Shown here: piece after piece, positions 2,799 through 62,061 of the stretch | Position numbering within the stretch: position 1 is the first letter of the stretch | Layout of the letters: each line of letters opens with the position of its first letter | From: Escherichia phage ECD7 | Length of the DNA: 64,000 nucleotides | Reading direction: 5' to 3' (one strand) | Sequence record: NC_041936.1 | The notes under the pieces: model-generated | What the model saw: the letters and a program-made list of their open reading frames with translations, nothing else | Databases searched by the model: none | Told to the model about the DNA's origin: nothing | Made by a program: the position numbers and the translations under genes

Positions 2799-2836
2799 GG
2801 GATATTATGATATATCCCCTATCTGGTGTCAACAAC
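2799..2836 (-). promoter_or_regulatory. sigma70-type early promoter with GGGGATAT/ATATCCCC stem-loop around the -10
   Basis: Minus strand reads TTGACA-17nt-CATAAT; plus-strand tgtcaa at 2827-2832. Confidence 0.55.
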
Positions 2837-2839
2837 TTT

Positions 2840-3139
2840 TTAATCTTTTTTCAGTGCATCCATTACTCGCTCTGCGATCAGTTCTCGTAAGCACTGATAG
2901 CCATGATATTTGATGGCAATGTCACGCAGATCATTAACCAGTTCCCGTACTTCATGGTCTTTCAAATCGTCTCTGTATTTCGACTTAACCGTGTCTTTAG
3001 GTGGATTGCGAATAACCTGAAAACCTTGTTCTGCAATCACTGCGGCTTCTCGCTGGCGTTCATGCTGTACTGTATTTTTGATCAGGTCTACTTCCATGAA
3101 CTTTGTCATACTCATCATCATGTTATTCTTTTTGCTCAT
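2840..3139 (-). CDS. hypothetical protein
   Basis: Likely start ATG at 3137-3139 (MSKKNN...) downstream of promoter at 3170-3203; track ORF extends to 3220. Confidence 0.45.
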   Translation of the reverse strand: MSKKNNMMMSMTKFMEVDLIKNTVQHERQREAAVIAEQGFQVIRNPPKDTVKSKYRDDLKDHEVRELVNDLRDIAIKYHGYQCLRELIAERVMDALKKD

Positions 3140-3169
3140 TATTAAATCCTCATAAAAGAAAAGGGAGAC

Positions 3170-3203
3170 TCCCATTATAGAGAATCTCCCTTGTATGTCA
3201 AGT
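3170..3203 (-). promoter_or_regulatory. sigma70-type early promoter
   Basis: Minus strand TTGACA-16nt-TATAAT just after the gene 39 stop. Confidence 0.5.
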
Positions 3204-3204
3204 G

Positions 3205-5028
3205 TTATGATTGCATCCAAATTTTTCGGCGGTCTGAATCTTCGCTATAGAGCAAATCGAATAGCTCTTTATAGTTTTCCGGTAACGTGATGATTTCCAT
3301 TACAGGATCGTTGATCACGCGATGATAATCTGATTCTGTAAGAGATGCTAACCCTTTGATATATCGAATGCTATAACCTTTGATATTATCTCGGTCGTTC
3401 TCGAAATCTTCTAGGTCATAATACCATCGAACATCATCACCTTTCTTTGGTTCCGCAATGATAATAGGTGTTTTGATAAACCGGATTCGTCCATCTTCGA
3501 ACAATTCAGGCCAACGTGCAAAGAAAGAGATCAGACTAGGTTTAATAGACCCGATCCCGTCAGTATCAGCGTCGGTCATAATCGCAATATTTTTGTATTG
3601 CATAACTTCCAATGCATCAACACCAAATTGCAAGCCAGTGATCGCCATGATGTTAAAAATTTCGGCGTTCTTAACGATCTTTGCCTCCGGTTGTTCCCAC
3701 GTTGTAAGAGTTTTGCCTCGCAACGGGAAACCTCCATGTAAATCTGGATCACGTACAGAGACCAGATAGTTGATCGCGGAATCACCTTCCGTCAAAAACA
3801 GGGTAGTTTCTGCGTCAGTTCCAATAAGGTTAGCTTTAACGTGTTTTGCTACCTTAGCCCGTTTCGCTGCTTTTGCTGCCTTAGTCGCTGCCGCTTTATC
3901 TGCTGCCTCTTTGCGTGCCAGGACTACAGCAATAATAGGCATGATAATGTTTTCTTTCTTCGCAATGACTTTAGCCAGCTTTTTAAAATCAAGATCAATA
4001 TGACGCTTGATATCACCAGTTGGATTAGTCAATCGTTCTTTTGTCTGTGAATCAAAACGGAGGTTTGGCAATTCACGAACAATAAGAATACAGGTCAATC
4101 CAGACTTAACCGCCGCTTTAGTAACATCAACCTTATGTTCTTTCTTGATTCGTTTTACAATCTCTTCACAAAGATCATCTATCACGTAGTCTACGTGTGT
4201 TCCCCCGTTTTTGGTAAACAGACCATTAGCAAAGGATACTGATTTAAAACCTTCTCCCTCGACCGCAGGAACTAGGGCAAGTGAAAAGTTTTTATCTTCA
4301 ATGACAAACGGATCATCATTGTATAGTTTAGCATAATCCTTGAACTTACTAACAATACGTTTACCATTAAACTTAAACGTGATCTTAGGAAAGATTACGC
4401 TCAATGATTGCAGACGGTCATGAACAATATCTAAAACAGAGTTGTCCATCATATAACCTTCGAAGTGGTCAAAGTCTGGACAAAATGTAACCTTCGTTCC
4501 CTTCAATTTTGATGGTTTTGATGACCATGTGATATTTTCAGCACCATTTGTGCATTGAACGGTCATTTCTGTTTCACCGTCACAAGTTACACCAGTAAAC
4601 CAATCGCTAAAGAAATTTGACAACGACGACCCCACACCGTTCATCCCTTGCGTTAATCGATTTGTATCATCAAAGTTAGATCCGGCCTTTGTTCGTGTCC
4701 ATGCGGCTACAGGTTGCGGAATCTGCGTACCCTCTGGAGTAGTAACCATATGTTGAGGAATACCGCGACCATTGTCTGTTACCGTAACAATATTGTTTTG
4801 GATATCTACGCTAATCACATTGGCAAATTCAAAATTAGTGCGGATCGCCTCGTCTACAGAGTTGTCGATGATCTCATCAATGATTTTAACCAGCCCAGGA
4901 ACATATGAAATTTTTGTCCATTTACCGAACAGGAAACGTTGATGTTCTTCGTAAGTTGTTGATCCTATATACATTCCTGCACGCTTAAGGACATGTTCAC
5001 GATCAGATAAAATGCGAAACTCACTCAT
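3205..5028 (-). CDS. 39: DNA topoisomerase II large subunit, fused gp39/gp60 form (GyrB-like ATPase)
   Basis: 607 aa; strong resemblance to T4 gp39 N-terminus (ILSDxEH, GMYIGS, VPGLVK, DNGRGIP) continuing through the region that is gp60 in T4. Confidence 0.93.
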   Translation of the reverse strand: MSEFRILSDREHVLKRAGMYIGSTTYEEHQRFLFGKWTKISYVPGLVKIIDEIIDNSVDEAIRTNFEFANVISVDIQNNIVTVTDNGRGIPQHMVTTPEGTQIPQPVAAWTRTKAGSNFDDTNRLTQGMNGVGSSLSNFFSDWFTGVTCDGETEMTVQCTNGAENITWSSKPSKLKGTKVTFCPDFDHFEGYMMDNSVLDIVHDRLQSLSVIFPKITFKFNGKRIVSKFKDYAKLYNDDPFVIEDKNFSLALVPAVEGEGFKSVSFANGLFTKNGGTHVDYVIDDLCEEIVKRIKKEHKVDVTKAAVKSGLTCILIVRELPNLRFDSQTKERLTNPTGDIKRHIDLDFKKLAKVIAKKENIIMPIIAVVLARKEAADKAAATKAAKAAKRAKVAKHVKANLIGTDAETTLFLTEGDSAINYLVSVRDPDLHGGFPLRGKTLTTWEQPEAKIVKNAEIFNIMAITGLQFGVDALEVMQYKNIAIMTDADTDGIGSIKPSLISFFARWPELFEDGRIRFIKTPIIIAEPKKGDDVRWYYDLEDFENDRDNIKGYSIRYIKGLASLTESDYHRVINDPVMEIITLPENYKELFDLLYSEDSDRRKIWMQS

Positions 5029-5127
5029 TATTAAACCTCTTCATAACATAACCATAACTTACTGCAACCGCCACAAAGACGGCTGCAACAATCATATTAA
5101 AAATTGAGTGATTGTCAAGTATATGAC

Positions 5128-5301
5128 TCATGACACGCGCACATTTTTATCGTAATACCCGCCATTAATCCCGCGCGGGGCAGTTAATCCCTGTTTGCAT
5201 TCTTTACCACATTCAGGGCATTCTGCCTTTTCACGCTCGGAAATTTTGCGGATTTTCTGAAATTGACCGTGTTCTTCACAAGAATAATCATATAATGGCA
5301 T
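5128..5301 (-). CDS. FmdB-like zinc-ribbon protein
   Basis: Internal start MPLYDYSCEEHG...; CxxC...CPECG pattern; track ORF 5128..5382 overlaps dexA. Confidence 0.5.
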   Translation of the reverse strand: MPLYDYSCEEHGQFQKIRKISEREKAECPECGKECKQGLTAPRGINGGYYDKNVRVS

Positions 5302-5302
5302 A

Positions 5303-8279: not shown

Positions 8280-9034
8280 TATAAACCTACCTTAGCTTTC
8301 ATCAATTCAATCCACGACGCATCAATCGGAAGCCCGTATTTCACGCGTTCTTTTTGTGCTGGCGTTAAGTTCTCATACTTAGAAAGAGATTCAATCAAAA
8401 CGCTGGTATATTTTAGCACGATTTCGGTATTGTTTGCAATAGCCTTAAGTTTTTCTTCTTTCTTGTTGATTTCGCTAAGTGCTTGCTTGAGGTCTGCAAT
8501 TTTCTGATAACGTTCTTCCATACGGAAGAGAGTATTTTTAATCGCTCGCTCGGCTGCCTCTGCTTTTTCCGGTTCGTTGTGCTTTTTGTGGCGCTCGATT
8601 GCTAATTTCTTTTCTTCGATTGCCATTTCCTGATTTTTGATGCGATTCTCGTTAAGTTCGATCCACTCGATGTACTTCGCACGTAGGGCAATTTCATCAT
8701 CAGAAAGTTTACCGTTAGTTCCTAGTTCCTGGATCTCTTTAAGAGATTCGATAGTGTGATTGCCACGGAAAGAATTATATTTCAGTTTAACCGGAATTAC
8801 ATTGCCATCAACATATCCCAGATTGCAATCAATGCGCTCTAATGAGAGTCCGTCATCACCTTCACCGAAAGCCTCACCTGAATAGGCGCAATGAGTCTGA
8901 CGGTAAATGTTACGCACAGTGACTAAGCTCATAGAGAAGTCTTTGTTGCGACGTGAAGCGCCAGCCATGATAGAGTTCAGACGGAAAACAACCAGCGCCA
9001 ATTCTTCGTTAGATTTAAAAGCAAACAGTTTCAT
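8279..9034 (-). CDS. hypothetical protein with C-terminal coiled coil (Srd-like by position only)
   Basis: 251 aa; position matches T4 srd; sequence similarity not verified. Confidence 0.4.
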   Translation of the reverse strand: MKLFAFKSNEELALVVFRLNSIMAGASRRNKDFSMSLVTVRNIYRQTHCAYSGEAFGEGDDGLSLERIDCNLGYVDGNVIPVKLKYNSFRGNHTIESLKEIQELGTNGKLSDDEIALRAKYIEWIELNENRIKNQEMAIEEKKLAIERHKKHNEPEKAEAAERAIKNTLFRMEERYQKIADLKQALSEINKKEEKLKAIANNTEIVLKYTSVLIESLSKYENLTPAQKERVKYGLPIDASWIELMKAKVGL

Positions 9035-9057
9035 AATTGATTCTCCTTAGTTGGTAT

Positions 9058-9094
9058 GTGTGTATTATTGTCTATCTGGTTTGTGCTGTCAACA
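9058..9094 (-). promoter_or_regulatory. sigma70-type early promoter
   Basis: Minus strand TTGACA then about 17 nt then AATAAT/TAATAC; followed by RBS and ATG at 9034. Confidence 0.45.
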
Positions 9095-9095
9095 C

Positions 9096-9599
9096 TTAAA
9101 TTAAAGAAAATTTGTAAATCTCTATCAGATCGCCGTTACACGCGTAAACTTCCTCGATCTCATCAAGGATCATGGTCGTCCCTGTCTTGTATATGCACTC
9201 TCGCTCATCTGCCAACATAGCATACAAAGACAGTCGAGTAGTCGGATTGTCATACTCTTTAGACACCACTCGGTCAATAGCATGTTCGTAATAATTCATG
9301 CAAGGCTTGGTAGGTTTTATTGCAATAATCTTTCCTGTTGCATAAACATCGGTTGCAAAGTCCTCTGCTGTTGATTGCAGTGGCGTAAAGCTCATAGGAC
9401 GCTCTACAACGAAAGAATCACCTACAATTAAGGTATCCAGCTTACGGCCTTCTCTTTTGCTCACACCGCGATACAAGGCTTCATGATGCACTAACCGTTC
9501 AGTCTTTTCGATCAATCCATTAAGGATCGACATATCGATATTTTCTTTAGAGTTCATCACTTCATCAATGATGTTAAGTTCTTCTGGTGTAAATTGCAT
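9096..9599 (-). CDS. ADP-ribosyltransferase (ModA/ModB-like)
   Basis: 167 aa; R (LYRG), S-T-x (QSTAE) and E-x-E (ERE) motifs in the order expected for R-S-E ARTs; T4 modA/modB position. Confidence 0.55.
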   Translation of the reverse strand: MQFTPEELNIIDEVMNSKENIDMSILNGLIEKTERLVHHEALYRGVSKREGRKLDTLIVGDSFVVERPMSFTPLQSTAEDFATDVYATGKIIAIKPTKPCMNYYEHAIDRVVSKEYDNPTTRLSLYAMLADERECIYKTGTTMILDEIEEVYACNGDLIEIYKFSLI

Positions 9600-9600
9600 A

Positions 9601-9663
9601 ATAAAAAAGCCTCCAATCTTTCGACGGGAGGCATAATAAAACCATTATAGAGTAGTGTCAACT
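9601..9663 (-). promoter_or_regulatory. early promoter plus terminator-like hairpin that sequesters the ART gene Shine-Dalgarno
   Basis: Minus: TTGACA-17-TATTAT, then GCCTCC-12nt-GGAGGC hairpin, U6, ATG at 9599. Confidence 0.5.
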
Positions 9664-9668
9664 AATTT

Positions 9669-10187
9669 TTAGTAGCCGCGTTCTTGACGGGCGAAGTTTT
9701 CAGCATTTTTCAGATAGTACAGAATAAAGAGTTCTTGAGCGTCAATACCCAGCGGGATCATCTTGGACAGAATGAAGTGGATCGCGTCCACAAATTCAAA
9801 TTTCACTTCAAGCTGATCTTCTGGTGACAGTTCAGAGAATTTACGCGCTCGCGCTTCCCCGTGGTTCTTTTTCCACATTTTCCAGATTGCGCTTGCATCT
9901 TTACCATTGGACATTCCACCCAGCGATGTGTAAAGCTCTCGTGTTTCGTCTGCGATAGCGTCATCCATCCGTTGCATCCAATCCAGCATTTCACCGCAAG
10001 TCTCTAGCTTAGTTGGGTTTGGGACCCAATCAAATTTTTCGGATAATGCAACCTGCAAACCAGTTTGCATTTCGAGCATCACCTGAAACGGATCTTTACC
10101 TTCTGCAATCGCGTGATGATATGCGGCGATAGCCGCGTTAATATCTTTTTCGTTAACCAGACCAGCACAAGAATTAAATTCTGACAT
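9669..10187 (-). CDS. 56: dCTP/dUTP pyrophosphatase gp56 (MazG-like)
   Basis: ATG at 10185-10187 with GAGGTG SD (track start is GTG at 10193); position between mod and 61. Confidence 0.65.
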   Translation of the reverse strand: MSEFNSCAGLVNEKDINAAIAAYHHAIAEGKDPFQVMLEMQTGLQVALSEKFDWVPNPTKLETCGEMLDWMQRMDDAIADETRELYTSLGGMSNGKDASAIWKMWKKNHGEARARKFSELSPEDQLEVKFEFVDAIHFILSKMIPLGIDAQELFILYYLKNAENFARQERGY

Positions 10188-16298: not shown

Positions 16299-16526
16299 CT
16301 ATTCAGTTAATCCGTAATACTTTAATTGCTTCATTGTTATTCGATCTTTGTAGTGCTCTTGAATTAACTTTTTCATCGCATCAACATCGATCGTCACAAA
16401 TACTTCGTTGCTGTGATTTCCGTGAACTTTCTTGAAATGCTCTATGCCTTCCTCACGTTCGCGTTTAATCTTTTCAATGTCTCTCATAGTATATTTCTCA
16501 CGTTGGCGGGTATCGTCACCCAACAC
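16299..16526 (-). CDS. hypothetical protein
   Basis: 75-aa ORF occupying the slot where T4 has beta-gt/42/imm. Confidence 0.4.
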   Translation of the reverse strand: MLGDDTRQREKYTMRDIEKIKREREEGIEHFKKVHGNHSNEVFVTIDVDAMKKLIQEHYKDRITMKQLKYYGLTE

Positions 16527-16548
16527 CCGCCATTATACACACTCGATC

Positions 16549-18025
16549 TTAAATGTCAAACAGGTCCGTAAGCGATGCCACCTTTTCATATTGCAGCTTT
16601 GCAGCCGTGGTAATGTTCTCCAGTGGTTTGACGAAAGTCTTATTAAACAACAAAGGCCAGTCTAACCACTTCAACACTTCTGATTCAATTTCTGGCGGAA
16701 TACGAGTACCAGACAACCAACCAAAACAGATTTCTCCAAACGGATTTCGATCTTTAAGCGGTACAATCATAACCTTCTCGCCTTCACGAATCGGATCTAG
16801 TCCGAATTTTCGAGCATTACGATTATAACACAATACACTCTTAACCGCATACGGACAACCCTTAATCGGATACCCGTTTGAATCGCTGTATTTCTGTAGG
16901 TTGTTTGCAGATGATACCGCAGCAACCTCAAGATAATCAAGTTTTCTAAACTCTTGCTCAAAAATACCGTAGTATTCCTGTAGCGATTCTTCCCCTTCCT
17001 GCAACATACGGCGAATACATTCTTTCAGTGATTTCTGACATGCTTTAGGGGTGGAGCTACGTTGCGTTTCCAAGCCCATGATTTTTAGCTTAGGTTCAGC
17101 AAAGCGCGTTCCTTCCATATCCCAAACATTAAGAGCATAACGCTTTTTACCAGTCCAGAATCCACCGATACCCGCAGATTTCAACGGAGGACCAGCAATT
17201 GCCTCACGGTCCATAAACATCAAGTGCTCATAGTTATTCATGTACTCGCATAACTCGCGATATCCCTTGTCGATAATAGGTTCCATTCGATGTTTACCGA
17301 AATTATCAAGGAAGTCAACAAGTTTTTCGGTATCGTCGAAACGGTCTTCCCCGCCAACCTTATCAACAACATTGTTAACCAGCACATAAACGGAGTCAGT
17401 ATCACAATAACGAACATATGCAAAATCAGTTGTTCCGCAAAGCTCGTTTAAGTATTCGTTAATCTTACGCTCAATCCACTGAATTGCAAGCTGACCAAAC
17501 AGTGTGATCGCACTAGCGTTACGGAGATCATAAAAACGGAATTTAGGATTCCCCAACGCACCATAAAGGGAGTTGATCAAAACTTTACGAGAAAGCTGGT
17601 TTGTATTGCACAAGATCGACTCGTCTTTACATTCTTCCAGCAATTTCTCTAAGGCATCTTTACTTAATTCAGAAAGCATCGATTTAAACGCTTCGTCAAA
17701 GTCGTGACGCACTTCAACGCTATAGCTAATGGTTCCCCCATAAACATGATTTTCATCGTGTAGAATCGCTTTACATAGTTCAGCATTGCGATCACATGCC
17801 AGCATCATATTTTTGTACTGCTTACGCTGATCAAATACCTTTTTAATCTCAATAGGTACGATACCATGAATATCTTTTCGATACATCCACCCGTTAGGCG
17901 AGCAAGAATACTCATCACTCGGACGTGGTGCAGTTTTATTGATATATTCGTGCATCGGTGCAGCATCAAAAGATCCAGCGATTGTTTCAGGCGAAATATT
18001 AACCTGACGGATGATTGATGGATAC
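16549..18025 (-). CDS. 43: DNA polymerase gp43, exon 2 (motif A YPS onward; palm/thumb)
   Basis: Frame open from 18025 (YPSIIRQVNISPET...); LINSLYGALGN, YCDTDS, KKRY motifs; stop at 16549-16551. Confidence 0.9.
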
Positions 18026-19139: not shown

Positions 19140-20341
19140 AGGGAAGTAAGGTCAAAGCTCATCATCCAACGATAAGCATTAGGTACTGGCTCTTTTACGA
19201 ATGCGCCAGGATAAGTCTGCTTAGGCTGTATCTTGTTCTCTGGTACTACTTTACCCTCAGCTTTCAGAGATCCGAAGATAATAGCATCCCATACTTTCAT
19301 CGGGTTATAAACATGGTTAAATTTAATCTTTGCATAGAAACATAGACTATACACCAGATCGATAAATCCACGCTTTTTATCAATCGCCAGCACACGATCA
19401 ACGTCGCCGATGTTATAATCGATGTAAAGTTGATGATTGTCATCACGCAATTTCTTTAACGGACCATCATAATCAACCTTACCGATTCCTGTCTCATATT
19501 CAGCAACATAATCTAACGCATATGTTGGTTGAGTCGTAAAGCTAAATTTCTTGTACAGGTCAATATAATCAAGGCTTTCGATCCCCATGATCGTAAATGC
19601 TTCACGCTCGTTGCCAAAATCATCCTGTGAGATTCTGGATTTAATCTTACCGCACGGGCTTAGACGGTTAGCGGTTCTACTTCCGAACTTATTACTGATA
19701 CGTTTAATGATATATGGAATATCGAATGTTTCTGTGTTCCAGCCAGTGAAACCAACGGGTCGGTTTTCCTCAAAGAATCGGATGTATTCTAACAGCAATT
19801 CATCTTCTGTGTCATAGACGTTATAAACAACGCGCTCTACAATATCAGGTCGAAGAATAGACTTGCTTGCTTCCCAGATTTCACCGTTTTTTCCTTTCAA
19901 ATCAAATACAAAGAAACGATCATGTACGGAATCATAATGCGTAATTGCATCTATAGGATATTTCGCTTCTTCTGGTTTAGGAAATTCTGGGGCAGTGACC
20001 TCAATATCAACCCATGCTACACGGATTTTATTTCGGTCATATCGAATCTCTCCTTTATACGTATCGGACAGATAGGAGATGATAAAATCATCCATCCCTA
20101 GTGCCTCTTGCCCCATCTCCCCCATCTTTTTACGCCATTTGTTGGCCTCGTTCATAGATGGGAATTTTTTAGCAATGCAAGGCTTGCCGTAGATATCTTT
20201 ATAATTCGTAACCATACCAGGCGCGGCATGATGAAATAAAGTTGGCGTATATTCAACGTAACGCTCTTGTTCTTGTCCAGCATCATCAATATAACGCTCG
20301 TAGATCTTATCACCCACTCGCTCACATGACAGAAAATACAT
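19140..20341 (-). CDS. 43: DNA polymerase gp43, exon 1 (N-terminal and 3'-5' exonuclease domains to motif A)
   Basis: ATG 20339-20341 with AAGGAG SD; ERYIDDAGQ, FDIPYI, ends FDLTSL at splice site. Confidence 0.9.
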
Positions 20342-20364
20342 AATATAAACTCCTTCACTTACGA

Positions 20365-20405
20365 AAGACACTCATTATAGGGGAATCGACTTAGTTTGTC
20401 AATAC
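20365..20405 (-). promoter_or_regulatory. sigma70-type early promoter upstream of gene 43
   Basis: Minus: TTGACA-17nt-TATAAT, with GGGG/CCCC inverted repeat flanking the -35. Confidence 0.5.
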
Positions 20406-20423
20406 CCCTATCCCATCAGTATC

Positions 20424-20786
20424 TTAGCGTCCGATCTGATATTTCTCGATCAGCGTCCACTCTTCTTTCTGTTTGAAAGACAGTACACGGAAATTATTAA
20501 CTTCGGTAGTTTCAAAATCATTATCAATCAGGGTACACAGATTCCACTGCGCCAGAAGTTTTGCAATGTTATTACGGCGTAATTCATCTTCCCACGTCAT
20601 TTTAACACTACGACCATCTAATTTCAACAACTCCTTGAAATGAACGATGTAATAGCGCCCTTTCTTCTGGAGAATATGACAAGACTGATACAGTGTCTTG
20701 TCTCGATTGTTGGCAATGCCGCAGCGGGTTAAAGTTTCCTTAATTTTAAGGAAGTTTTCAGGACTAATCAAATTAATTTCAATCAT
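20424..20786 (-). CDS. regA: translational repressor RegA
   Basis: 120 aa; LYQSCHILQKKG.YYIVHFKE nearly identical to T4 RegA. Confidence 0.93.
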   Translation of the reverse strand: MIEINLISPENFLKIKETLTRCGIANNRDKTLYQSCHILQKKGRYYIVHFKELLKLDGRSVKMTWEDELRRNNIAKLLAQWNLCTLIDNDFETTEVNNFRVLSFKQKEEWTLIEKYQIGR

Positions 20787-22340: not shown

Positions 22341-22365
22341 ATAATCACCTCTCACAAATTACATC

Positions 22366-22393: not shown

Positions 22394-22405
22394 ACAAACA
22401 TTATA

Positions 22406-34676: not shown

Positions 34677-34679
34677 CAT

Positions 34680-40476: not shown

Positions 40477-40478
40477 TA

Positions 40479-43673: not shown

Positions 43674-43701
43674 TATATGATAACCGCATTTTCATGTCAA
43701 C
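43666..43701 (-). promoter_or_regulatory. sigma70-type early promoter
   Basis: Minus: TTGACA-17nt-TATAAT with GCGGT/ACCGC inverted repeat. Confidence 0.5.
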
Positions 43702-43708
43702 AGTTTTT

Positions 43709-44083
43709 TTAAAAATCTTCGTCCGGTTTATATCGACCGTCATCGACTGGTTTTGGACTGAATCCTTTATGCGTGCGCGGCTTCGCTTCCGGTTTACCAG
43801 CAATCATCAAACCAAAACATTTCATCCCCTTATAACACATAACAATATCAACCACGGTCCACGTTATAGGCCATAAGATTGCAGCAATACAAAATGCTCC
43901 TGTATCGACCTCTTTGGTGTCCTTGTCGAATCTGGCATACAAGCAGAATACTAGATACGAGATCATTGCACCAGTAACCCAGATATAAAGTACATTAACA
44001 ATATCTTGTGTTGTCAAATTGTCCTCCTTACATGTCTTGCAGTGCATAAAAGCATTTTTCTTCGTAGTCATAGAAAATGTCAA
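43709..44083 (-). CDS. hypothetical membrane protein
   Basis: 124 aa with hydrophobic segments. Confidence 0.4.
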   Translation of the reverse strand: MTFSMTTKKNAFMHCKTCKEDNLTTQDIVNVLYIWVTGAMISYLVFCLYARFDKDTKEVDTGAFCIAAILWPITWTVVDIVMCYKGMKCFGLMIAGKPEAKPRTHKGFSPKPVDDGRYKPDEDF

Positions 44084-44306
44084 AGTATGCTTTTTCTACA
44101 TACTCGCCATTGATCCAAGCGGCAGTAACAATCAGAGTGGTCCAGTTAGATCCGCTCTCAACGGTAAAGGTTTTAATACCCAGCTTCGCTGCCAAGTCGA
44201 ACGCAAACCGGACGCAACCACGGCAGGAAGTGATATTGGAAGTTTTGATTTTAAAGCCACCGCGAGTTTTAGAAATTTCTACTTTAGCGAAAGACAGGTT
44301 GCTCAT
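44028..44306 (-). CDS. hypothetical protein
   Basis: 92-aa ORF. Confidence 0.4.
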   Translation of the reverse strand: MSNLSFAKVEISKTRGGFKIKTSNITSCRGCVRFAFDLAAKLGIKTFTVESGSNWTTLIVTAAWINGEYVEKAYFDIFYDYEEKCFYALQDM

Positions 44307-44347
44307 TTTGATTCTCCTTAAGAAAGTGTGTTTCGTTTTGATGTGTG

Positions 44348-44378
44348 TAGTATAGGGGATACGTGATCCCCTGTCAAC
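44348..44378 (-). promoter_or_regulatory. sigma70-type early promoter (PeSL-like)
   Basis: Minus: TTGACA-GGGGATCACGTATCCCC-TATACT. Confidence 0.55.
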
Positions 44379-44385
44379 AACTTTT

Positions 44386-44715
44386 TTATGATTTTAGTGA
44401 ATTAACCACTACATCAAAATGATGGACAGAGCACACCTTACGAAACACATATTCATCGTGTTTCGGGATCTCCCCTAACCTCTCTATTTCGCTCGCCATA
44501 ACGATAAACTGTTTATCTGGTGCATATGCCTTGTATGCTTCAACAACGCACGGAAAACGCGTTTTAGAGAGTTCTGGATAGTTTTCTGAATCCAGAAGGA
44601 CAATGAATACTCTGTTACATTGATTGTAGAATCCTGTTTTTGATTTCATCAAGTTTTCTTCTATGTTCAAGTCGCGCAATCTTCTTTTCATGATTTCGTT
44701 GGTTCTTGTCTTCAC
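44386..44715 (-). CDS. hypothetical protein
   Basis: 109-aa ORF. Confidence 0.4.
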   Translation of the reverse strand: MKTRTNEIMKRRLRDLNIEENLMKSKTGFYNQCNRVFIVLLDSENYPELSKTRFPCVVEAYKAYAPDKQFIVMASEIERLGEIPKHDEYVFRKVCSVHHFDVVVNSLKS

Positions 44716-46361: not shown

Positions 46362-46623
46362 TACATGCTTTTAATGCATCAGTTGCTGTGTCATAACGAG
46401 TATTATCATAGCACCAATAACCATCTGTCAACTGATAAATTAATCCATCCTTTTTAGCTTCGATGAAAGATAACTCTTTGAAAGTTTCTACTTTCTTTGC
46501 TGATACTCCACGGTCACGGCGCTTATAGAGTTTAGCTAAAATGCGTTCAGCTTGTTCCTCTTTATCACCAGACAGATCCCAAATAATGTTGCGGATATGT
46601 TTGATTAATTGTTCAGTGGTCAT
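46333..46623 (-). CDS. hypothetical protein
   Basis: 96-aa ORF. Confidence 0.4.
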   Translation of the reverse strand: MTTEQLIKHIRNIIWDLSGDKEEQAERILAKLYKRRDRGVSAKKVETFKELSFIEAKKDGLIYQLTDGYWCYDNTRYDTATDALKACNDHLRKTSI

Positions 46624-46649
46624 CTTTGATTCTCCTTAGTTGGTATGTG

Positions 46650-46681
46650 TGCATTATAGCATTGTGATTATCTTTGTCAAC
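46650..46681 (-). promoter_or_regulatory. sigma70-type early promoter (PeSL-like)
   Basis: Minus: TTGACA-17nt-TATAAT then conserved UTR and AAGGAG. Confidence 0.55.
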
Positions 46682-46684
46682 ACC

Positions 46685-46717
46685 CAAAAACAAAAAAGGC
46701 TATCCCGAAGGATAGCC
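46685..46717 (-). terminator. intrinsic terminator after the glycine-rich gene
   Basis: Minus: GGCUAUCC-uucg-GGAUAGCC then UUUUUUGUUUUU. Confidence 0.65.
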
Positions 46718-46724
46718 CATAAAA

Positions 46725-47555: not shown

Positions 47556-47777
47556 TTAGATGACCTCTGCTTCACCATCCAGGAAGAAAGACCATGTTTT
47601 GTTAGGATAGCGAAGCGCCCATGATTCAGCAGTTTTAACACCAGATTCGAACAATTGACGACTGGTTACTTTAGCCATACCATCTTCGATGGCAACGTTT
47701 TCAATAATCATCGGGTAATTAGCGCCACGCATGAAACCGAAACCAGCGGAAGATTTGATAATTTTAACAGTTGCCAT
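47556..47777 (-). CDS. hypothetical protein
   Basis: 73-aa ORF. Confidence 0.4.
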   Translation of the reverse strand: MATVKIIKSSAGFGFMRGANYPMIIENVAIEDGMAKVTSRQLFESGVKTAESWALRYPNKTWSFFLDGEAEVI

Positions 47778-47817
47778 TTTTTGATTCTCCTAGAAAGTGT
47801 ATCTCGTTTCGATGTGT

Positions 47818-47849
47818 GCATTATGCAATAACACCGGATCGCTGTCAAC
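47818..47849 (-). promoter_or_regulatory. sigma70-type early promoter (PeSL-like)
   Basis: Minus: TTGACA-17nt-CATAAT. Confidence 0.55.
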
Positions 47850-47866
47850 ACTTTCTAAGAAAAATT

Positions 47867-48151
47867 TTAAATTAATCGAATATAGCCCAGAATTTCAGCA
47901 CTTTTAGCCAGGTCTAAAACTTCCCATTCAAGGTCGCCGTAGTCATAATTTGCAACCATCAACTGACCATTTTTCATGCAGCAATCATGAGAGAAAATTT
48001 GCCCCGCATAAACTACGATAGTGATAAACTTTCCTGATTCTGGCGGTGTGGAAGACAAAGCGACCATATGACCATTCAGCTTAGTCACCAGTGATGGAAC
48101 AATAAAATTCGGGCTTACCTTAATACCGTTAAATTCGTTTGTGTCTTTCAT
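47867..48151 (-). CDS. hypothetical protein
   Basis: 94-aa ORF. Confidence 0.4.
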   Translation of the reverse strand: MKDTNEFNGIKVSPNFIVPSLVTKLNGHMVALSSTPPESGKFITIVVYAGQIFSHDCCMKNGQLMVANYDYGDLEWEVLDLAKSAEILGYIRLI

Positions 48152-48833: not shown

Positions 48834-49032
48834 TCTTCACGGTCTCCATAATTGTTTTGTAAGCCAGTTTAAGATGATCACCGAAAAACTTTGCGGTGTT
48901 ACCCTTCGGATCGCGGAGCATGGTTTCTACGATCTCATCGTCAGTAACAATTTCTCCCTTCTTTGCTGCATGTTCTACCATATACTTCAAAGTTTCTTCG
49001 GAGGCAAGTGCTGCGGCTACTGGATTAATCAT
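48823..49032 (-). CDS. hypothetical protein
   Basis: 69-aa ORF after AAGGAG. Confidence 0.4.
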   Translation of the reverse strand: MINPVAAALASEETLKYMVEHAAKKGEIVTDDEIVETMLRDPKGNTAKFFGDHLKLAYKTIMETVKNAK

Positions 49033-49059
49033 TTTGGTTCTCCTTTGTTGTCGATGTGT

Positions 49060-49091
49060 GCATTATGCTATACCCTATTCCGGTTGTCAAC
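49060..49091 (-). promoter_or_regulatory. sigma70-type early promoter (PeSL-like)
   Basis: Minus: TTGACA-17nt-CATAAT. Confidence 0.55.
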
Positions 49092-49099
49092 ACCTAAAA

Positions 49100-49125
49100 A
49101 CGAAAAAGCCACCCTTTCGGATGGC
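49100..49125 (-). terminator. intrinsic terminator
   Basis: Minus: GCCAUCC-gaaag-GGUGGC then UUUUUCGUUUUU. Confidence 0.65.
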
Positions 49126-49359
49126 TTTTGATTATATTTTATTCACGTCCATTTGTATAGTAGTGTTTGAATCGACCTTTGCTAAACTCGTTAAACATAG
49201 TAACCAATTTACCATCCCTTTCCAATGATAACCCTTCCTCGTCTTAGATGGGTCTTCCGATTCGGCAGTAATTGAACACGCGAAAGTATGAGGAAGCCAA
49301 ATGGTTGTGTTAATGCTAGTATTCTTTTACTTCTGGTATGTATCCCAATGTGACTAACA

Positions 49360-52234: not shown

Positions 52235-52825
52235 TCAATAGCGTTTAGTCTTAAGAATGCCTTTACTCTTTAGATGGTTAGCCTTTTTTAGTACGTCATC
52301 AGCATAACCTAATCCGGCTTTATAGTTCCATCCAGCATTGTAAGAAGCTAGCGCGAGTCTGATATTACCGTTTCGAATATCCAGCCAGTATGCTAACTCA
52401 TCCATCGCGTAGAATGCAGAAACCTCGCGATTCATGATAAAGTTGATAGTCTGGCGATCACTCATTTTAACACCGCGCTTTGCATTTTTCGCTTTCACCG
52501 TTTTAAGGTAATTTTGAAATAATCCATAAGCATGATGATTTTTCTTTGGTGCTAAGTTTGCACCCGCGCTTGATTCTTGCCATGCGATACCCGCCAGGAT
52601 GTGACCTAAACCCTTTCCGTTATAGCGAATATTCGGATGGTACTTTTTCAACTTACCGCTTTTCTCAAATTGCTCGCCGTATTGATAGGCGAAATGTAAA
52701 TTATCTAGTTGGTGTGCTGTAAAGTTGTCTATCGGCGCTTTTTTGATCGGTGCGCTAGTCGATGCGTGTGTAGCACCAACGGCTAGTGACAGACTCAATA
52801 CTATCGCTTTTAGAACTTTTAACAT
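52235..52825 (-). CDS. lytic transglycosylase (SLT domain) with Sec signal peptide
   Basis: Signal peptide MLKVLKAIVLSLSLAVGATHA; SLT motifs AWQESS, YGLFQ, ASYNAGW. Confidence 0.75.
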   Translation of the reverse strand: MLKVLKAIVLSLSLAVGATHASTSAPIKKAPIDNFTAHQLDNLHFAYQYGEQFEKSGKLKKYHPNIRYNGKGLGHILAGIAWQESSAGANLAPKKNHHAYGLFQNYLKTVKAKNAKRGVKMSDRQTINFIMNREVSAFYAMDELAYWLDIRNGNIRLALASYNAGWNYKAGLGYADDVLKKANHLKSKGILKTKRY

Positions 52826-52859
52826 TAATTTCTCCTGTTTGGCTTAACTTTCTGATTTC

Positions 52860-52890
52860 ATAATATAGCCCTATCACCAGAAAGTCAAGC
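52860..52890 (-). promoter_or_regulatory. sigma70-type early promoter driving the SLT operon
   Basis: Minus: TTGACT-17nt-TATTAT then CAGGAGAAATTA-ATG. Confidence 0.55.
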
Positions 52891-52911
52891 ATTATTTTTA
52901 ACCAATTTCCA

Positions 52912-53334
52912 TTATTGGTCTACCTTCAAAACAACCGCCGACATTTTACCCGCCAGTCGTTTTGGATTCTCTATAATCATTCGGCAGCATAGACCGTGAT
53001 ATGGCTTACCCTCTTCGATTAGATCTACTGTCATCCCGATCCACATGTTACCATCAGTAATTTCTAATCGATTAGGTCGGTTTTCCATTTTCAGGAAGTC
53101 GAAGATCTCCGGCAAACGAGTTTCTATCTTATTGAATAGTTCCATTGTCTTATGTTCATCGATATGACGATCGGTTAGACGGTCGATCATATGCGGACTA
53201 AAGCGAATGAAAATATACTCGCCGTAACCATCATTCAAGCACTTTTCTTTGATCTGCGCATTGGTTTTGCGCATTTCGGTTTCGAAGAATCTACGCAGCT
53301 TACTACGGCGAACATGTACGTTAATTGTTTCCAT
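52912..53334 (-). CDS. regB: RegB site-specific endoribonuclease
   Basis: VHVRRSKLRRFFE, RLEITDGNMWIGMTV, CRMIIENPKRLAGK resemble T4 RegB; ATG 53332-53334. Confidence 0.85.
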   Translation of the reverse strand: METINVHVRRSKLRRFFETEMRKTNAQIKEKCLNDGYGEYIFIRFSPHMIDRLTDRHIDEHKTMELFNKIETRLPEIFDFLKMENRPNRLEITDGNMWIGMTVDLIEEGKPYHGLCCRMIIENPKRLAGKMSAVVLKVDQ

Positions 53335-53338: not shown

Positions 53339-53674
53339 TTATCCTTTCTTAAACAAATTGCGAATCCAGTATACAAACGGGATCTCTTTAAACTTGAATT
53401 TCTCTATAGTTAATTCTTTAGTAGCAAGATGAATACCATAAGCATCATGTGTCACGATATGCCATTTTCTATAGTCCAAATGTGAACAACCGTCTGGATC
53501 TAGGTTAATAAGAGTTTCTCGCTCACTAGGATTATTTTTCCACAATTTTGTAATAGGATCGCACATAATTCGACCTAGCGTACCATGAATAATCTCACAA
53601 CGGTAAAGTTTTCCAGCAGTGAGATAGGCGCACCCGTCATAGTCGGTATAAACAAACACTTCTTTAACACTCAT
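53339..53674 (-). CDS. small paralog-family protein (GC[SA]HL..W motif)
   Basis: Internal ATG with GGAGTA SD; ...DPDGCSHLDYRKWHIV. Confidence 0.45.
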   Translation of the reverse strand: MSVKEVFVYTDYDGCAYLTAGKLYRCEIIHGTLGRIMCDPITKLWKNNPSERETLINLDPDGCSHLDYRKWHIVTHDAYGIHLATKELTIEKFKFKEIPFVYWIRNLFKKG

Positions 53675-53696
53675 TTTAATACTCCTTTGTTTCGAT

Positions 53697-53732
53697 GGGG
53701 GTATATTACTACCCCCGTTTTGTTGTGTCAAC
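53697..53732 (-). promoter_or_regulatory. sigma70-type early promoter (PeSL-like, GGGGGTA stem-loop)
   Basis: Minus: TTGACA-17nt-TAATAT. Confidence 0.55.
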
Positions 53733-53992
53733 TACTTTTTCAAGATTTTTTTAATTGCGTTCCAAAGACCTTTATTCTCAGGTTGTTTTGGTTCTTCGAT
53801 CAGTGTCCATGTTCGACCGTCTAAGTGTGCACAATTTTTAAGACAAATAAAAATCTGGTGTCCATTATCATCACGGATATAACCACTATTCGCAAATCTT
53901 TCATGTGGTGTATATTCATACAGTGTATTTGGTGTAATATACTTGCGGTTACTATAAGGTGTCATTACATATTTCATGGTACTAACTCCCAT
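53732..53992 (-). CDS. small paralog-family protein
   Basis: ...CLKNCAHLDGRTWTLIEEP. Confidence 0.45.
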   Translation of the reverse strand: MGVSTMKYVMTPYSNRKYITPNTLYEYTPHERFANSGYIRDDNGHQIFICLKNCAHLDGRTWTLIEEPKQPENKGLWNAIKKILKK

Positions 53993-58676: not shown

Positions 58677-59003
58677 TTAGAAAGAAACAGTTTTCAAGAA
58701 ATCCAGATTTTTAGTACCGAAAACAGAAAAGTAGTGTTTTCCTTTTTCGGTTTTAGAGAAAGCGATTGTCTTCTCTACATGGTGACGGAAGCCAGACAGA
58801 CGATCACCCAGGTCAAGGCGGCAAGCGTAAGTAGTGCCGTTTTCGAAAGTAACCTCGATTTGAGTTTTGTCATATTCGCTTTCATAGGCTTTTGCTGCCG
58901 CGTCCTGTGCTTTACGCTCGAAGTCTTCGAAGTGGAATACTTCGTTTGCGTTAGCGAATACAGAAGATTCAGAGAAGATAACTTTAACAGATACTGGTTT
59001 CAT
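58677..59003 (-). CDS. hypothetical protein
   Basis: 108-aa ORF after AAGGAG. Confidence 0.45.
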   Translation of the reverse strand: MKPVSVKVIFSESSVFANANEVFHFEDFERKAQDAAAKAYESEYDKTQIEVTFENGTTYACRLDLGDRLSGFRHHVEKTIAFSKTEKGKHYFSVFGTKNLDFLKTVSF

Positions 59004-59044
59004 TTTGATACTCCTTAGTAGTTCGTGTTTCGTTTCGATGGGTG

Positions 59045-59076
59045 TATTATGCTATACACCCTCTCTCGTGTCAACA
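59045..59076 (-). promoter_or_regulatory. sigma70-type early promoter (PeSL-like)
   Basis: Minus: TTGACA-17nt-CATAAT then conserved CATCGAAACGAAACAC UTR. Confidence 0.55.
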
Positions 59077-59083
59077 ACTTTTT

Positions 59084-59272
59084 TTAGTCTTTTTTCAAAA
59101 TTTTTAAGGCAGTTTCTACAGCACCTTTCCAACCCTCCCACATAATGGACATAGTAATGAAGTTAAAGCACCCGCAGGAATCAACCTTTTTAGAGATAAA
59201 CCATTCAACAAATCCTTCGCTCATACCATGCTCTTTAGCGGATTCGCGTAATTGTTCAATTTGGTCTTCCAT
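59084..59272 (-). CDS. hypothetical protein
   Basis: 62-aa ORF. Confidence 0.35.
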   Translation of the reverse strand: MEDQIEQLRESAKEHGMSEGFVEWFISKKVDSCGCFNFITMSIMWEGWKGAVETALKILKKD

Positions 59273-59482: not shown

Positions 59483-59710
59483 TTAAAGTTGTTCTGCAAT
59501 GTATGCGGTGCATTTGCGGAGTTTAGCCATAGCACCACCTTTCATGTCGCTTGCGCCTACAATGTTCATGATCTCTAAGCGATCAGCCGGATTCAGTCTA
59601 GTAGCCCAGATCTGGTTAGCCAGTTCCATTTTACCCATCTGCGGTTCCATCTCAAACATTTCACGCTCAAAGTCGATAATTTCTTTTGCTGCGTCTTTAA
59701 AGTTAATCAT
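59483..59710 (-). CDS. hypothetical protein
   Basis: 75-aa ORF. Confidence 0.4.
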   Translation of the reverse strand: MINFKDAAKEIIDFEREMFEMEPQMGKMELANQIWATRLNPADRLEIMNIVGASDMKGGAMAKLRKCTAYIAEQL

Positions 59711-59737
59711 TTTGGTCCTCCCGTTTCGTTGATGGTT

Positions 59738-59769
59738 GTATTGTAGGGGAGTTATCCTCCCCTGTCAAC
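59738..59769 (-). promoter_or_regulatory. sigma70-type early promoter (PeSL-like)
   Basis: Minus: TTGACA-GGGGAGGATAACTCCCC-TACAAT. Confidence 0.5.
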
Positions 59770-59776
59770 ACTTTTA

Positions 59777-59962
59777 TCAGAAATATGCAATATAGTTTGC
59801 CAGTCCTACAGAGTCATCATTCGGCATTGCTTTTACCGCCAGTTCAAACCCTGCTTCAACTTTCTGTTTAGCGGATTCTTCGTTATAACCCCAGATGACC
59901 AGAATAGCTACTACGTTTTCTTTGCTTACTGCTTTCAGTGCTTTAGTGATGCGACGTGCCAT
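59777..59962 (-). CDS. hypothetical protein
   Basis: 61-aa ORF. Confidence 0.35.
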   Translation of the reverse strand: MARRITKALKAVSKENVVAILVIWGYNEESAKQKVEAGFELAVKAMPNDDSVGLANYIAYF

Positions 59963-60006
59963 AATTTGATTCTCCGTTTAAGAAAGTGTGTTTCGTTTCG
60001 ATGGGT

Positions 60007-60038
60007 GTATTATGCTATAGGCGTGATCTGGTGTCAAC
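60007..60038 (-). promoter_or_regulatory. sigma70-type early promoter (PeSL-like)
   Basis: Minus: TTGACA-17nt-CATAAT. Confidence 0.55.
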
Positions 60039-60060
60039 AACTTTTTTAAAAATTTTAGGC

Positions 60061-60087
60061 AATAAAAAAGCCACTCCGAAGAGTGGC
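60061..60087 (-). terminator. intrinsic terminator
   Basis: Minus: GCCACUC-uucg-GAGUGGC then UUUUUUAUU. Confidence 0.7.
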
Positions 60088-60237
60088 TTATAGGGAAGGT
60101 AGCGAATCTTCCTTGTCTCCAACCTGCTAGCGGCCTAGCAAGTGAATGCTTTAGCGTACCGGATCACCCCATACGCTGTAATAAATGCGGCTAGGTGACG
60201 TCCAAATCATTCTAACCGCGCTGTCTTTAGTTCACTA
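60088..60237 (-). ncRNA. candidate small structured RNA (late promoter to terminator, no ORF)
   Basis: TATAAATA at plus 60239-60246 (minus strand), about 150 nt with several 6-bp hairpins, longest ORF 14 codons, ends at terminator 60061-60087. Confidence 0.4.
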
Positions 60238-60959: not shown

Positions 60960-61202
60960 TCATAGATCACAGAGCCATCTGAAAGCACCACATAAAGCGA
61001 GCAGAATACTAGGTATAAACGAGACTAAAACAAGTTGGCAAAAATCATCTAAGGTAACACCGGAATAGCTACCTACTGTAACAACACCGATCATCAGACA
61101 CAGAAAGAAAACAAATGCAATCAGAAACAAAGTATTGCTAAACAGTTTAGTGATCATTAGACACCCCACGACGATCAATTTCAAAAACTTTTTTATCATC
61201 AA
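60960..61202 (-). CDS. small hydrophobic membrane protein
   Basis: 80 aa. Confidence 0.4.
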   Translation of the reverse strand: MMIKKFLKLIVVGCLMITKLFSNTLFLIAFVFFLCLMIGVVTVGSYSGVTLDDFCQLVLVSFIPSILLALCGAFRWLCDL

Positions 61203-61350
61203 CGAAGCATGTCACAACTGCCTCGTTGACTTCCGCAAATTGTTGTGTTACCCACTTAAGGTCAGAGCGAAACAATGTTCTATTAATAACAAATGTTTTA
61301 CCGCTCTTATCCTTACCCATAAATTTTGCTTTAACCATATCCAATTCCAT
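61147..61350 (-). CDS. hypothetical protein
   Basis: 67-aa ORF. Confidence 0.35.
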   Translation of the reverse strand: MELDMVKAKFMGKDKSGKTFVINRTLFRSDLKWVTQQFAEVNEAVVTCFVDDKKVFEIDRRGVSNDH

Positions 61351-61368
61351 ATTATCACCTTATTTGCT

Positions 61369-61527
61369 AATCGCTAAACCCAATCCGAAGAGAGCACCCG
61401 ATGCTACAGTATACACGAAAGTTTCAAAGGCAGTAAAGATATCTAAGCCACCAGCTAACAGAGTTGCAGTAAACAGAGTACCAGCTACGAACATAAAAGT
61501 TTTACCGATAAATTTCATCTTGATTCT
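61369..61527 (-). CDS. small hydrophobic membrane protein (52 aa)
   Basis: Hand-translated MKFIGKTFMFVAGTLFTATLLAGGLDIF...; below track cutoff. Confidence 0.3.
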
Positions 61528-61543
61528 CCTTTCGTTTGTTTGT

Positions 61544-61579
61544 GGGGGTATCTTACTACCCCCGTTTCATGTTGTCAAC
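61544..61579 (-). promoter_or_regulatory. sigma70-type early promoter (PeSL-like, GGGGGTA stem-loop)
   Basis: Minus: TTGACA-17nt-TAAGAT. Confidence 0.55.
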
Positions 61580-61584
61580 TGTTT

Positions 61585-62028
61585 TTAAGAAAATTTTACT
61601 TCGTCTACAATGTCTTTCATGACATTGATTTCCATTCCGGTCAGAACACGTTGGAACATGTGCTGAACATACGCTTTCAGGTATTCATTTGACGGCTTGC
61701 TATCAAAAGTCTTTTTAGTGTAGTAGTCATCACCGAAAGCTACTGTAATTACATTTTCGTCGTCATTCCAAGCGATATAAGCAAATTTGCCGTTATCCCA
61801 GAAGCGAGCACTAATTGCTACTTTTGTTGAATCGAATCCTAATTCGCTGTGAGATTCAAGAACTACTTGCGTGCCAGTTTCTTTATGAATGTAGTAGCGG
61901 GATACTAAGTCAAAGTTACGGGTGTAGTGACATTCGAATTTATCTTTAAACATCATCATTTTGATTCTCCTAAGTGTGTTTCGTTTCGATATGTGTATTA
62001 TTCTATAGTCGTTTATGGTTGTCAACAC
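61585..62028 (-). CDS. hypothetical protein
   Basis: 147-aa ORF upstream of the Acb1-like gene. Confidence 0.45.
   Translation of the reverse strand: MLTTINDYRIIHISKRNTLRRIKMMMFKDKFECHYTRNFDLVSRYYIHKETGTQVVLESHSELGFDSTKVAISARFWDNGKFAYIAWNDDENVITVAFGDDYYTKKTFDSKPSNEYLKAYVQHMFQRVLTGMEINVMKDIVDEVKFS
61995..62026 (-). promoter_or_regulatory. sigma70-type early promoter (PeSL-like)
   Basis: Minus: TTGACA-17nt-AATAAT. Confidence 0.5.
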
Positions 62029-62029
62029 C

Positions 62030-62061
62030 TAAAAACAAAAAACCCCGAAAAATTTTCGGGG
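62030..62061 (-). terminator. intrinsic terminator
   Basis: Minus: CCCCGAAAA-u-UUUUCGGGG then UUUUUUGUUUUU. Confidence 0.7.

Follow-up and report, generated by a model that had tools for sequence, protein, structure and literature searches.

In this study, the first 64 kb of the Escherichia phage ECD7 genome (NC_041936.1; 64,000 nucleotides (nt), hereafter the window) were found to carry 23 copies of a promoter cassette, and these cassettes are very probably promoter-early stem-loop (PeSL) elements of a Krischvirus. PeSLs, which have been put forward as linkers in the recombination of accessory genes of T4-type phages, were defined in the phages Phi1 and RB49, with 52 and 51 copies, respectively, by a near-perfect TTGACA-N17-TATAAT promoter, an AT-rich upstream region, a polyG/polyC stem-loop in one of five placements and a 3' Shine-Dalgarno (SD) sequence with ATG (Arbiol et al., 2010; PMC2839356), and the RB49/Phi1 type was later restated as TTGACA-N17-TATAAT with Gn-loop-Cn (Comeau et al., 2014; PMC4122927). 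All of these sequence features are present in the window, and the elements are thus already known in exactly this genus. As judged by megablast (93-98% identity, no identical record), the window belongs to an RB49/Phi1/JSE-like T4-type coliphage of the genus Krischvirus; it is collinear with Phi1, the gene coordinates matching from base 1 (rIIA) onward. The minus strand holds all substantial open reading frames (ORFs) and the plus strand no genes, and the GC content of about 40% goes together with a steady negative GC skew. Sequence features, excess over chance, conservation, covariation and sense-strand selection were computed here, while the literature is the source for mini-circles, mapped start sites and activity as promoter and terminator. 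Read as PeSLs, the cassettes would explain how dozens of small early genes are expressed as insulated units by the host RNA polymerase.

A sequence-only reading of the window had listed 22 repeated promoter cassettes, giving for each the start-site end, about 30-35 nt below the -35 box. All 22 were confirmed on the minus strand, where each reads as an A/T-rich stretch, (G)TTGAC(A/G), a spacer, a TATAAT-like -10, an SD and ATG. Defining a cassette operationally as a promoter followed by SD-ATG 27-46 nt past the -10, and checking against the annotation of Phi1, RB49 and GEC-3S, added one more at 52888; cassettes are named here by the first coordinate of the -35 on the minus strand (Table 1) and make up 4.6% of the window. 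The spacer, put at 17 nt by the same reading, has this length in 19 cassettes and is 16 nt long in the other four. The -10 hexamers show 0-2 mismatches to TATAAT, and all 23 promoters have at most two mismatches to the sigma-70 consensus. Searching for TTGACA-N16-18-TATAAT with at most one mismatch returned 34 matches on the minus strand and one on the plus strand as compared to 1.8 ± 1.5 in dinucleotide shuffles, so that a chance origin was rejected; perfect matches numbered 8 against 0.07 expected, and an independent consensus scan of 44-64 kb agrees. The A+T fraction of the 25 nt preceding the -35 ranges from 0.44 to 0.84, with a run of at least four A in 15 of the 23 cassettes, and in five cassettes (class D below) a terminator T-tract takes the place of the upstream A-rich stretch.

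SD and ATG were found at the 3' end of every cassette. The conserved leader that had been noted is borne out by GGAGAATCAA, which occurs in exactly 10 copies, all on the minus strand and all at SD positions, and by CATCGAAAC or a one-mismatch variant of it at the predicted start site of nine cassettes. The division into two subfamilies proved too simple: at least four leader types and five stem-loop placements are combined as mosaics. Exact blocks of 12-32 nt are common to different cassettes (e.g., 32 nt in 59074 and 60037, 26 nt in 9092 and 46680), and cassette 60037 is itself a mosaic of blocks from 2832 (21 nt), 59074 (32 nt) and 44377 (21 nt); recombination or conversion among the copies has therefore happened. 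The cassettes are concentrated between 34 and 62 kb (17 of 23), most of the genes downstream of them being annotated as hypothetical in Phi1. In two probable further members, 16559 and 22428, the hairpin comes after the -10. Cassettes 20402 and 16559 lie on either side of gene 43, and 35827 follows nrdD.

The SD is GGAG in 16 of the 21 cassette-led genes as compared to 34 of 104 other called genes (p = 4e-4). The window encodes RegB (regB, 52912-53334), described in the annotation notes as a GGAG-cutting endoribonuclease, and it is plausible that the standard leader marks early mRNAs for inactivation by RegB. As a separate observation, 17 more minus-strand promoters lie within one mismatch of the sigma-70 consensus, far above the shuffle expectation, with the -35 at 260, 2218, 5118, 14123, 16559, 22428, 23233, 24133, 24251, 31400, 31490, 34077, 38472, 40598, 46431, 52218 and 56908. 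Most of them are located within genes or at gene ends, without the upstream-promoter (UP) region, stem-loop and leader of the cassettes, and orthologues of several are annotated as hypothetical early promoters in the RB49 record.

The GC-rich inverted repeats reported in the spacer or -10 were confirmed by folding the region from -47 to about +8 of each cassette against shuffles. A z-score of about -3 or lower was obtained for 14-15 of the 23 core promoters, and the summed minimum free energy of -265 kcal/mol for the 23 cassettes compares with -152 ± 10 kcal/mol for the shuffles, an excess of 11 standard deviations. Hairpins predicted within upstream coding sequence were dropped as spurious; their variable pairs mostly break, as would be expected of chance structures. 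A stem-loop is present in 20 of the 23 cassettes, and five placements were distinguished. In class A (eight members and one decayed), a stem of 7-10 bp (13 bp in 3201) closes a 6-nt loop containing the first bases of the -10, and its 3' arm forms the discriminator and ends at the start site. The hairpin is placed in the spacer directly after the -35 in class B (four members) and across the -35 in class C (one), is a separate upstream hairpin with a U-tract in class D (five), and follows the -10 in class E (one). The five upstream terminators that had been described are the class D hairpins. A tract of 6-9 U in 10 nt, as in canonical intrinsic terminators, follows only the class D hairpins and those of 3201 and 9661, while class B hairpins, with 1-5 U in the next 10 nt and the -10 hexamer (UAUACU or UAUAAU) as tail, are marginal. 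At gathering thresholds, no curated Rfam covariance model matched anywhere in the 64-kb window, and Rfam has no model for the cassettes.

Conservation was analyzed by fetching the homologous regions of seven relatives (Phi1, RB49, GEC-3S, E26, JK32, PHB13 and JSE). All 23 cassettes occur at syntenic positions in these genomes, with 90-99% identity in Phi1 and RB49, and the inverted repeats are kept in the homologous cassettes of all seven, which removes one of the grounds on which the sequence-only reading would have been abandoned. Variable columns amounted to 1 of 128 in the -35, 1 of 82 in the -10, 1 of 137 in the 5' stem arm lying in the spacer, 43 of 214 in the unpaired spacer, 12 of 110 in the loops and 42 of 683 in the leader. 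The 5' arm is thus as conserved as the hexamers and far less variable than the unpaired spacer (Fisher p = 2.5e-9), a comparison that is a clean test because nothing else constrains the spacer sequence. Among the orthologues, thirteen stem pairs vary. Pairing was kept in eight, all by transitions to sense-strand G.U (U-A/U.G or G-C/G.U) and none to A.C (0 of 8; binomial p = 0.008), as in the U.G/U-A variation of cassette 43700; the five pairs that break do so by transversion, and two of these five belong to the decay of the 39565 stem. In cassette 34675, the changes among orthologues are confined to the loop. A search of IMG/VR with thymidine kinase for relatives gave only distant T4-like contigs (32-58% identity), none of which carried these cassettes; 0-1 TTGACA-consensus promoters per 20 kb were found around tk in most of these loci and up to seven in one, and the contigs were unusable for orthologue analysis.

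Moreover, pairing was examined among paralogues, namely 13 class A hairpins from the window and the second hyperplastic region of Phi1. MAFFT aligned these hairpins by the -10 rather than by structure, in three registers; pairs were hence counted with the structure as anchor, which biases the count towards pairing, and the count was controlled by swapping partners between sequences. The seven inner stem positions were paired in 13 of 13 hairpins with 2-4 pair types at five of the seven, as seen from differing stems such as GGGGAUAU/AUAUCCCC and GGGUGUAU/AUACACCC. Sense-strand G.U was the sole non-Watson-Crick pair, and the paired fraction was 0.95 as compared to 0.59 ± 0.07 with swapped partners. 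Class B stems behaved in the same way. Taken together, the orthologue and paralogue results show selection on pairing itself, acting on the transcribed-sense strand, and point to an RNA hairpin in read-through transcripts rather than a duplex palindrome or cruciform.

The cassettes are orthologues of the PeSLs described in Phi1 and RB49 and differ from them in nothing essential: the genus, the syntenic positions, the promoter build, the five stem-loop placements, the SD/ATG, the hyperplastic location and the flanks of gene 43 and nrdD are shared, and the small differences are the decayed stem of 39565 and the location of the window indels mostly away from PeSLs. PeSLs have been reported to cluster near gene 43 and nrdD and in hyperplastic regions, where they precede small ORFs without assigned function. 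The Phi1 PeSLs 193/192 and 206/205 were assayed as promoters in lacZ fusions, PeSL206/205 reaching about 13,000 Miller units, and in a reporter the stem-loop of PeSL211/210 terminated with an efficiency close to that of rrnB T1 (PMC2839356). By sequence, PeSL206/205 and PeSL212(211)/210 are of class B, and cassette 44377 is 87% identical to PeSL212(211)/210 over approximately 100 nt; the assayed Phi1 paralogues themselves map outside the window. The GenBank records of GEC-3S and RB49 already annotate orthologous promoters and terminators, and the RB49 early promoter consensus agrees with 5'-end mapping (PMC1524935). On the basis of the sequence, this mapping and the Phi1 lacZ fusions (PMC2839356), the cassette promoters are regarded as host sigma-70 early promoters. 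The PeSL analogues of T4/PST and KVP40/nt-1 and the T4 early promoters likewise combine an early promoter with a stem-loop in intergenic, hyperplastic regions, but have TTTACW or TTGYVH -35 boxes and A/T-richer stems (PMC4122927). The promoter-gene-terminator units known as morons in lambdoid phages (Hendrix et al., 2000, as discussed in PMC2839356) also provide small accessory genes with their own promoter and terminator; however, they do not form a family of repeated sequences, and no role as recombination linkers has been proposed for their regulatory parts. What is added here to the published description is small, namely the sense-strand selection on the stems, the constraint on the spacer arm at the level of the hexamers and the observation that only some classes look like true intrinsic terminators.

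Following this, we propose that each cassette acts as a strong early promoter for host sigma-70 polymerase, composed of an A-tract UP-like region, GTTGACA, a spacer of 16-17 nt and a TATAAT-like -10, and that it would drive the next small gene via a short standard leader, usually with a GGAG SD. The start site is predicted after the 3' arm in classes A-C, inside the 3' arm in 3201 and just after the 5' arm in 9661, and the hairpin would therefore exist only in transcripts read in from the upstream gene. The G/C-rich stem-loop would act as RNA in transcripts that come in from upstream: the U-tract hairpins (class D, 3201 and 9661) would terminate them and insulate the transcription unit, in class B the -10 hexamer would supply the U/A-rich tail for termination, and class A hairpins, because they have no U-tail, probably attenuate or pause read-through or cap the 3' end of the upstream mRNA. 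The SD of cassette 9661 is part of the 3' hairpin arm, so that only the cassette's own transcript would expose it, while read-through transcripts would terminate or hide it. Transcript-specific control of translation by SD-sequestering hairpins is known from the T4 genes e, soc and I-TevI. Cassette 9661 resembles these in that its SD is paired only in read-through transcripts and its own start site lies inside the hairpin, but it is alone in this respect here, the SD being unpaired in the other cassettes. The repeat family itself probably arose as consensus signals were selected and copies recombined with or converted one another; the shared 12-32 nt blocks could serve as recombination linkers, which would be a by-product here.

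Several points weigh against this reading. With 0-3 U among the 10 nt that come after them, class A hairpins do not qualify as canonical intrinsic terminators, and the published terminator assay was performed with a class B hairpin only (PMC2839356). Cassettes 9092 and 47848 have no stem-loop and that of 52888 is weak; furthermore, the hairpin is not indispensable, as the stem of 39565 has decayed in this genome. The orthologue comparison is limited to close genomes (93-99% identity) and few independent events, and nothing of relevance turned up when the literature was searched for transcriptome or Term-seq data on Krischvirus. As to class A, it is possible, although rather unlikely, that these hairpins are no terminators but a distinct RNA element of read-through transcripts with selection strictly on the sense-strand RNA, for example a 3'-end cap made by processing, on which the stability of the upstream mRNA would depend, or an anti-occlusion or pausing element stopping incoming polymerases from silencing the promoter. 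In the stem of cassette 39565 (39542-39530), the 3' arm reads TACTACA in this genome only, with two C's lost, as compared to TACTCCC in seven of seven relatives; this natural stem-breaking variant could be used for probing hairpin function.

While the resemblance to PeSLs pointed out in the sequence-only reading was upheld in all defining sequence features and by orthology to Phi1 and RB49, the gene-shuffling role implied by it is not visibly at work in the window. About 13 distinct indels or replacements were detected in comparison to the seven relatives; large gaps produced by collinear chaining (greedy and dynamic programming) in E26 (32-45 kb), RB49 (6-12 kb) and PHB13 (41-45 kb) were artefactual and ignored. 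Approximately one of the 13, at 49134-49326, abuts a cassette, lying just upstream of 49090, where JK32 has 2.1 kb extra and Phi1 also differs. The remainder consists of homing-endonuclease insertions or of replacements at least 500 nt away from cassettes. Moreover, the block at 58650-62100, with five cassettes and two single genes between cassettes, was fully covered in 57 of 57 Krischvirus records and aligned as a single piece in 56. With about one in 13 indels next to a cassette and an unbroken five-cassette block in 57 genomes, a role of the cassettes as linkers in shuffling finds little support here. Six homing-endonuclease insertions were identified, two of them in this genome (11239-11807 and 1.1 kb in gene 43) and four in relatives (28248, 36863, 41272 and 54901-54928). 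In addition, one gene shows a presence/absence pattern: ORF 45896-46114 (junctions at about 46125 and 45905) is found in this genome, E26 and PHB13 but not in Phi1, JSE or JK32. Its boundaries are formed by a 24-nt direct repeat of the stop/SD/ATG linker, GAAGAGTGAGGAATATAGAATGAA, and not by a promoter cassette; here, a gene is gained or lost as a module by way of a short linker for translation initiation. Homing endonucleases and the short SD-linker repeat account for the indels in the window better than the cassettes do.

These findings also bear on the proposal that the stem-loops are primarily DNA-level sites, such as a cruciform or palindrome for a recombination protein like endonuclease VII or a factor yet to be named, and that the cassettes are chiefly mobile linkers moving ORFan genes via mini-circles. 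PeSL-PeSL mini-circles were indeed found by inverse PCR and a protein targeting GGGG...CCCC was speculated upon (Arbiol et al., 2010; PMC2839356), and the exact shared blocks, the three-way mosaic of 60037 and the indel beside 49090 would fit as well. However, all tolerated non-Watson-Crick pairs and all pairing-preserving stem transitions are sense-strand G.U, which would be A.C on the other cruciform strand, and the stems covary without any single recognition sequence being kept. With the scarcity of indels at cassettes and the intact five-cassette block against it as well, this proposal is improbable, and the reading as RNA hairpins is preferred.

Still more doubtful is the view that the cassettes lack common descent and that each promoter converged independently on the sigma-70 consensus, the similarity being purely functional. 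It would agree with conservation being highest in the functional hexamers, the UP-like A-tracts and the SD, and with the 17 near-consensus promoters devoid of other cassette features. Against this, the exact blocks of 21-32 nt cover spacer, discriminator and leader, i.e., positions without known consensus requirement, identical stems recur in sub-groups, and megablast of a single 3.4-kb query (the 58650-62100 block) detected 3-5 paralogous places per genome. A MITE-like (miniature inverted-repeat) transposon was rejected, terminal repeats and target duplications not being seen. Finally, termination of antisense transcription into the early region by class A hairpins on the plus strand was considered and rejected as very unlikely: although the A-rich spacer becomes a U-rich tail on that strand (4-7 U in 10 nt) and the consensus scan flagged 53694-53719 and 61542-61565 as terminator-like there, the sense-strand G.U pairs would be A.C mismatches, and the plus strand of the window has one near-consensus sigma-70 promoter, no copy of the late-promoter motif TATAAATA and no genes.

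Table 1. Promoter cassettes of the window and two probable further members (all on the minus strand; z, fold z-score against shuffles; perfect, no mismatch to TTGACA/TATAAT).
Cassette	Upstream of	Extent	Promoter	Stem-loop class and position	z	Remarks
2832	ORF004	2771..2857	-35 2832-2827; -10 CATAAT 2809-2804; ATG 2773-2771	A, GGGGATAT/ATATCCCC, 2819-2798, 6-nt loop over start of -10	-3.5	
3201	ORF005	3137..3226	-35 3201-3196; -10 TATAAT 3179-3174	A, 13 bp, 3192-3161, loop exactly the -10, then U-tract	-4.8	Terminator and promoter overlap
9092	srd	9032..9117	-35 9092-9087; -10 AATAAT	None		26-nt leader common to 46680
9661	modB	9597..9686	-35 9661-9656; -10 TATTAT	E, GCCUCC/GGAGGC, 9632-9609, then UUUUUU		SD GGAGG in 3' arm
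16559 (probable)	ORF025	16485..16584	Perfect TTGACA-N16-TATAAT, 16559-16532	16531-16505, -19.8 kcal/mol, downstream of -10		3' end of gene 43; orthologous early promoter annotated in RB49
20402	gene 43	20339..20427	Perfect; -35 20402-20397	C, 20408-20380, across -35	-3.6	Orthologue annotated as early promoter in RB49
22428 (probable)	Between genes 45 and 44	22338..22453	TTGACT-N17-TATAAT, 22428-22400	GGGGAGUA/UACUCCCC (full GGGGAGUAUAAAUACUCCCC), 22393-22374, then GUUUU, 6 nt past -10		Bears late-promoter motif TATAAATA; early and late promoters annotated in RB49
27221	ORF038	27163..27246	-35 TTGACG 27221-27216	B, 27216-27199, in spacer	-3.2	
34675	ORF053	34602..34700		B, GGGGAUC/GAUCCCC, 34670-34653	-3.4	42-nt leader
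35827		35768..35865	Perfect; -35 35827-35822	D, nrdD terminator 35865-35844, then UUUUCGUUUU		Orthologous terminator and promoter annotated in GEC-3S
38330	ORF057	38270..38355		A, GGGAGUAU/AUACUCCC, 38318-38297	-3.0	
39565	frd.2	39503..39590		A, stem decayed		
40475	ORF060	40413..40500		A, 40461-40440	-3.3	Sense-strand U.G pair (U-A in 5/7 relatives)
43700	ORF068	43635..43725	Perfect	A, 10 bp, 43689-43664	-4.2	
44377	ORF070	44304..44402		B, GGGGAU/AUCCCC, 44372-44354		
46680		46621..46718	Perfect; -35 46680-46675	D, gene 38 terminator 46718-46697		
47848	ORF080	47775..47873	-35 47848-47843	None significant		Long conserved leader
49090		49030..49129	-35 49090-49085	D, terminator 49129-49104		
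52888	vs.1	52823..52913	TTGACT-N17-TATTAT	Weak		Orthologue annotated as promoter in GEC-3S
53731	ORF095-regB	53672..53756		A, GGGGGUA/UACCCCC, 53716-53697	-3.4	
59074	ORF113	59001..59099		A, GGGUGUAU/AUACACCC, 59061-59040	-3.7	Long leader
59768	ORF116	59708..59793		B, GGGGAG/CUCCCC, 59763-59745	-5.4	
60037	ORF117	59960..60089	-35 60037-60032	D, terminator 60089-60068		Relic of class A, 5' arm lost
61578	ORF124	61516..61603		A, GGGGGUA/UACCCCC, 61563-61544	-3.2	
62025	ORF125	61957..62062	-35 62025-62020	D, gene 57B terminator 62062-62042		

Of the two homing-endonuclease insertions of this genome, the one at 11239-11807 is a 567-nt insertion beside gene 61, absent from Phi1 and RB49, in which ORF 11238-11801 encodes a homing endonuclease with HNH_3 and NUMOD4 domains. 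Gene 43, coding for the DNA polymerase, is interrupted at 18025-19151 on the minus strand by 1125 nt without counterpart in Phi1, RB49 and E26; in JK32, the gene appears to be split in the same way. Within the insert lies ORF 18166-18990 (274 aa), which was assigned to PHROG 12434 (HNH/homing endonuclease; E 6e-131) and has no Pfam match, with the late-promoter motif TATAAATA at 19021 just upstream of it, and a group I intron match below the Rfam gathering threshold was obtained at 18337-18077 (32.8 bits vs 50). Probably, a group I intron with a homing endonuclease gene is inserted here; otherwise, gene 43 would be a 'genes-in-pieces' split polymerase with the exonuclease part at 19133-20341 and the polymerase part at 16549-17955.

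Only four copies of the late-promoter motif TATAAATA exist in the window, each of them on the minus strand (60246, 50088, 22387 and 19021). At 22393-22374, in the interval separating genes 45 and 44, a hairpin overlaps with both an early and a late promoter. In addition, stand-alone intrinsic terminators without an adjacent consensus promoter were detected on the minus strand at 47537-47522 and 54965-54941, the latter adjoining the site at which JK32 and JSE carry a homing-endonuclease insertion (54901-54928).

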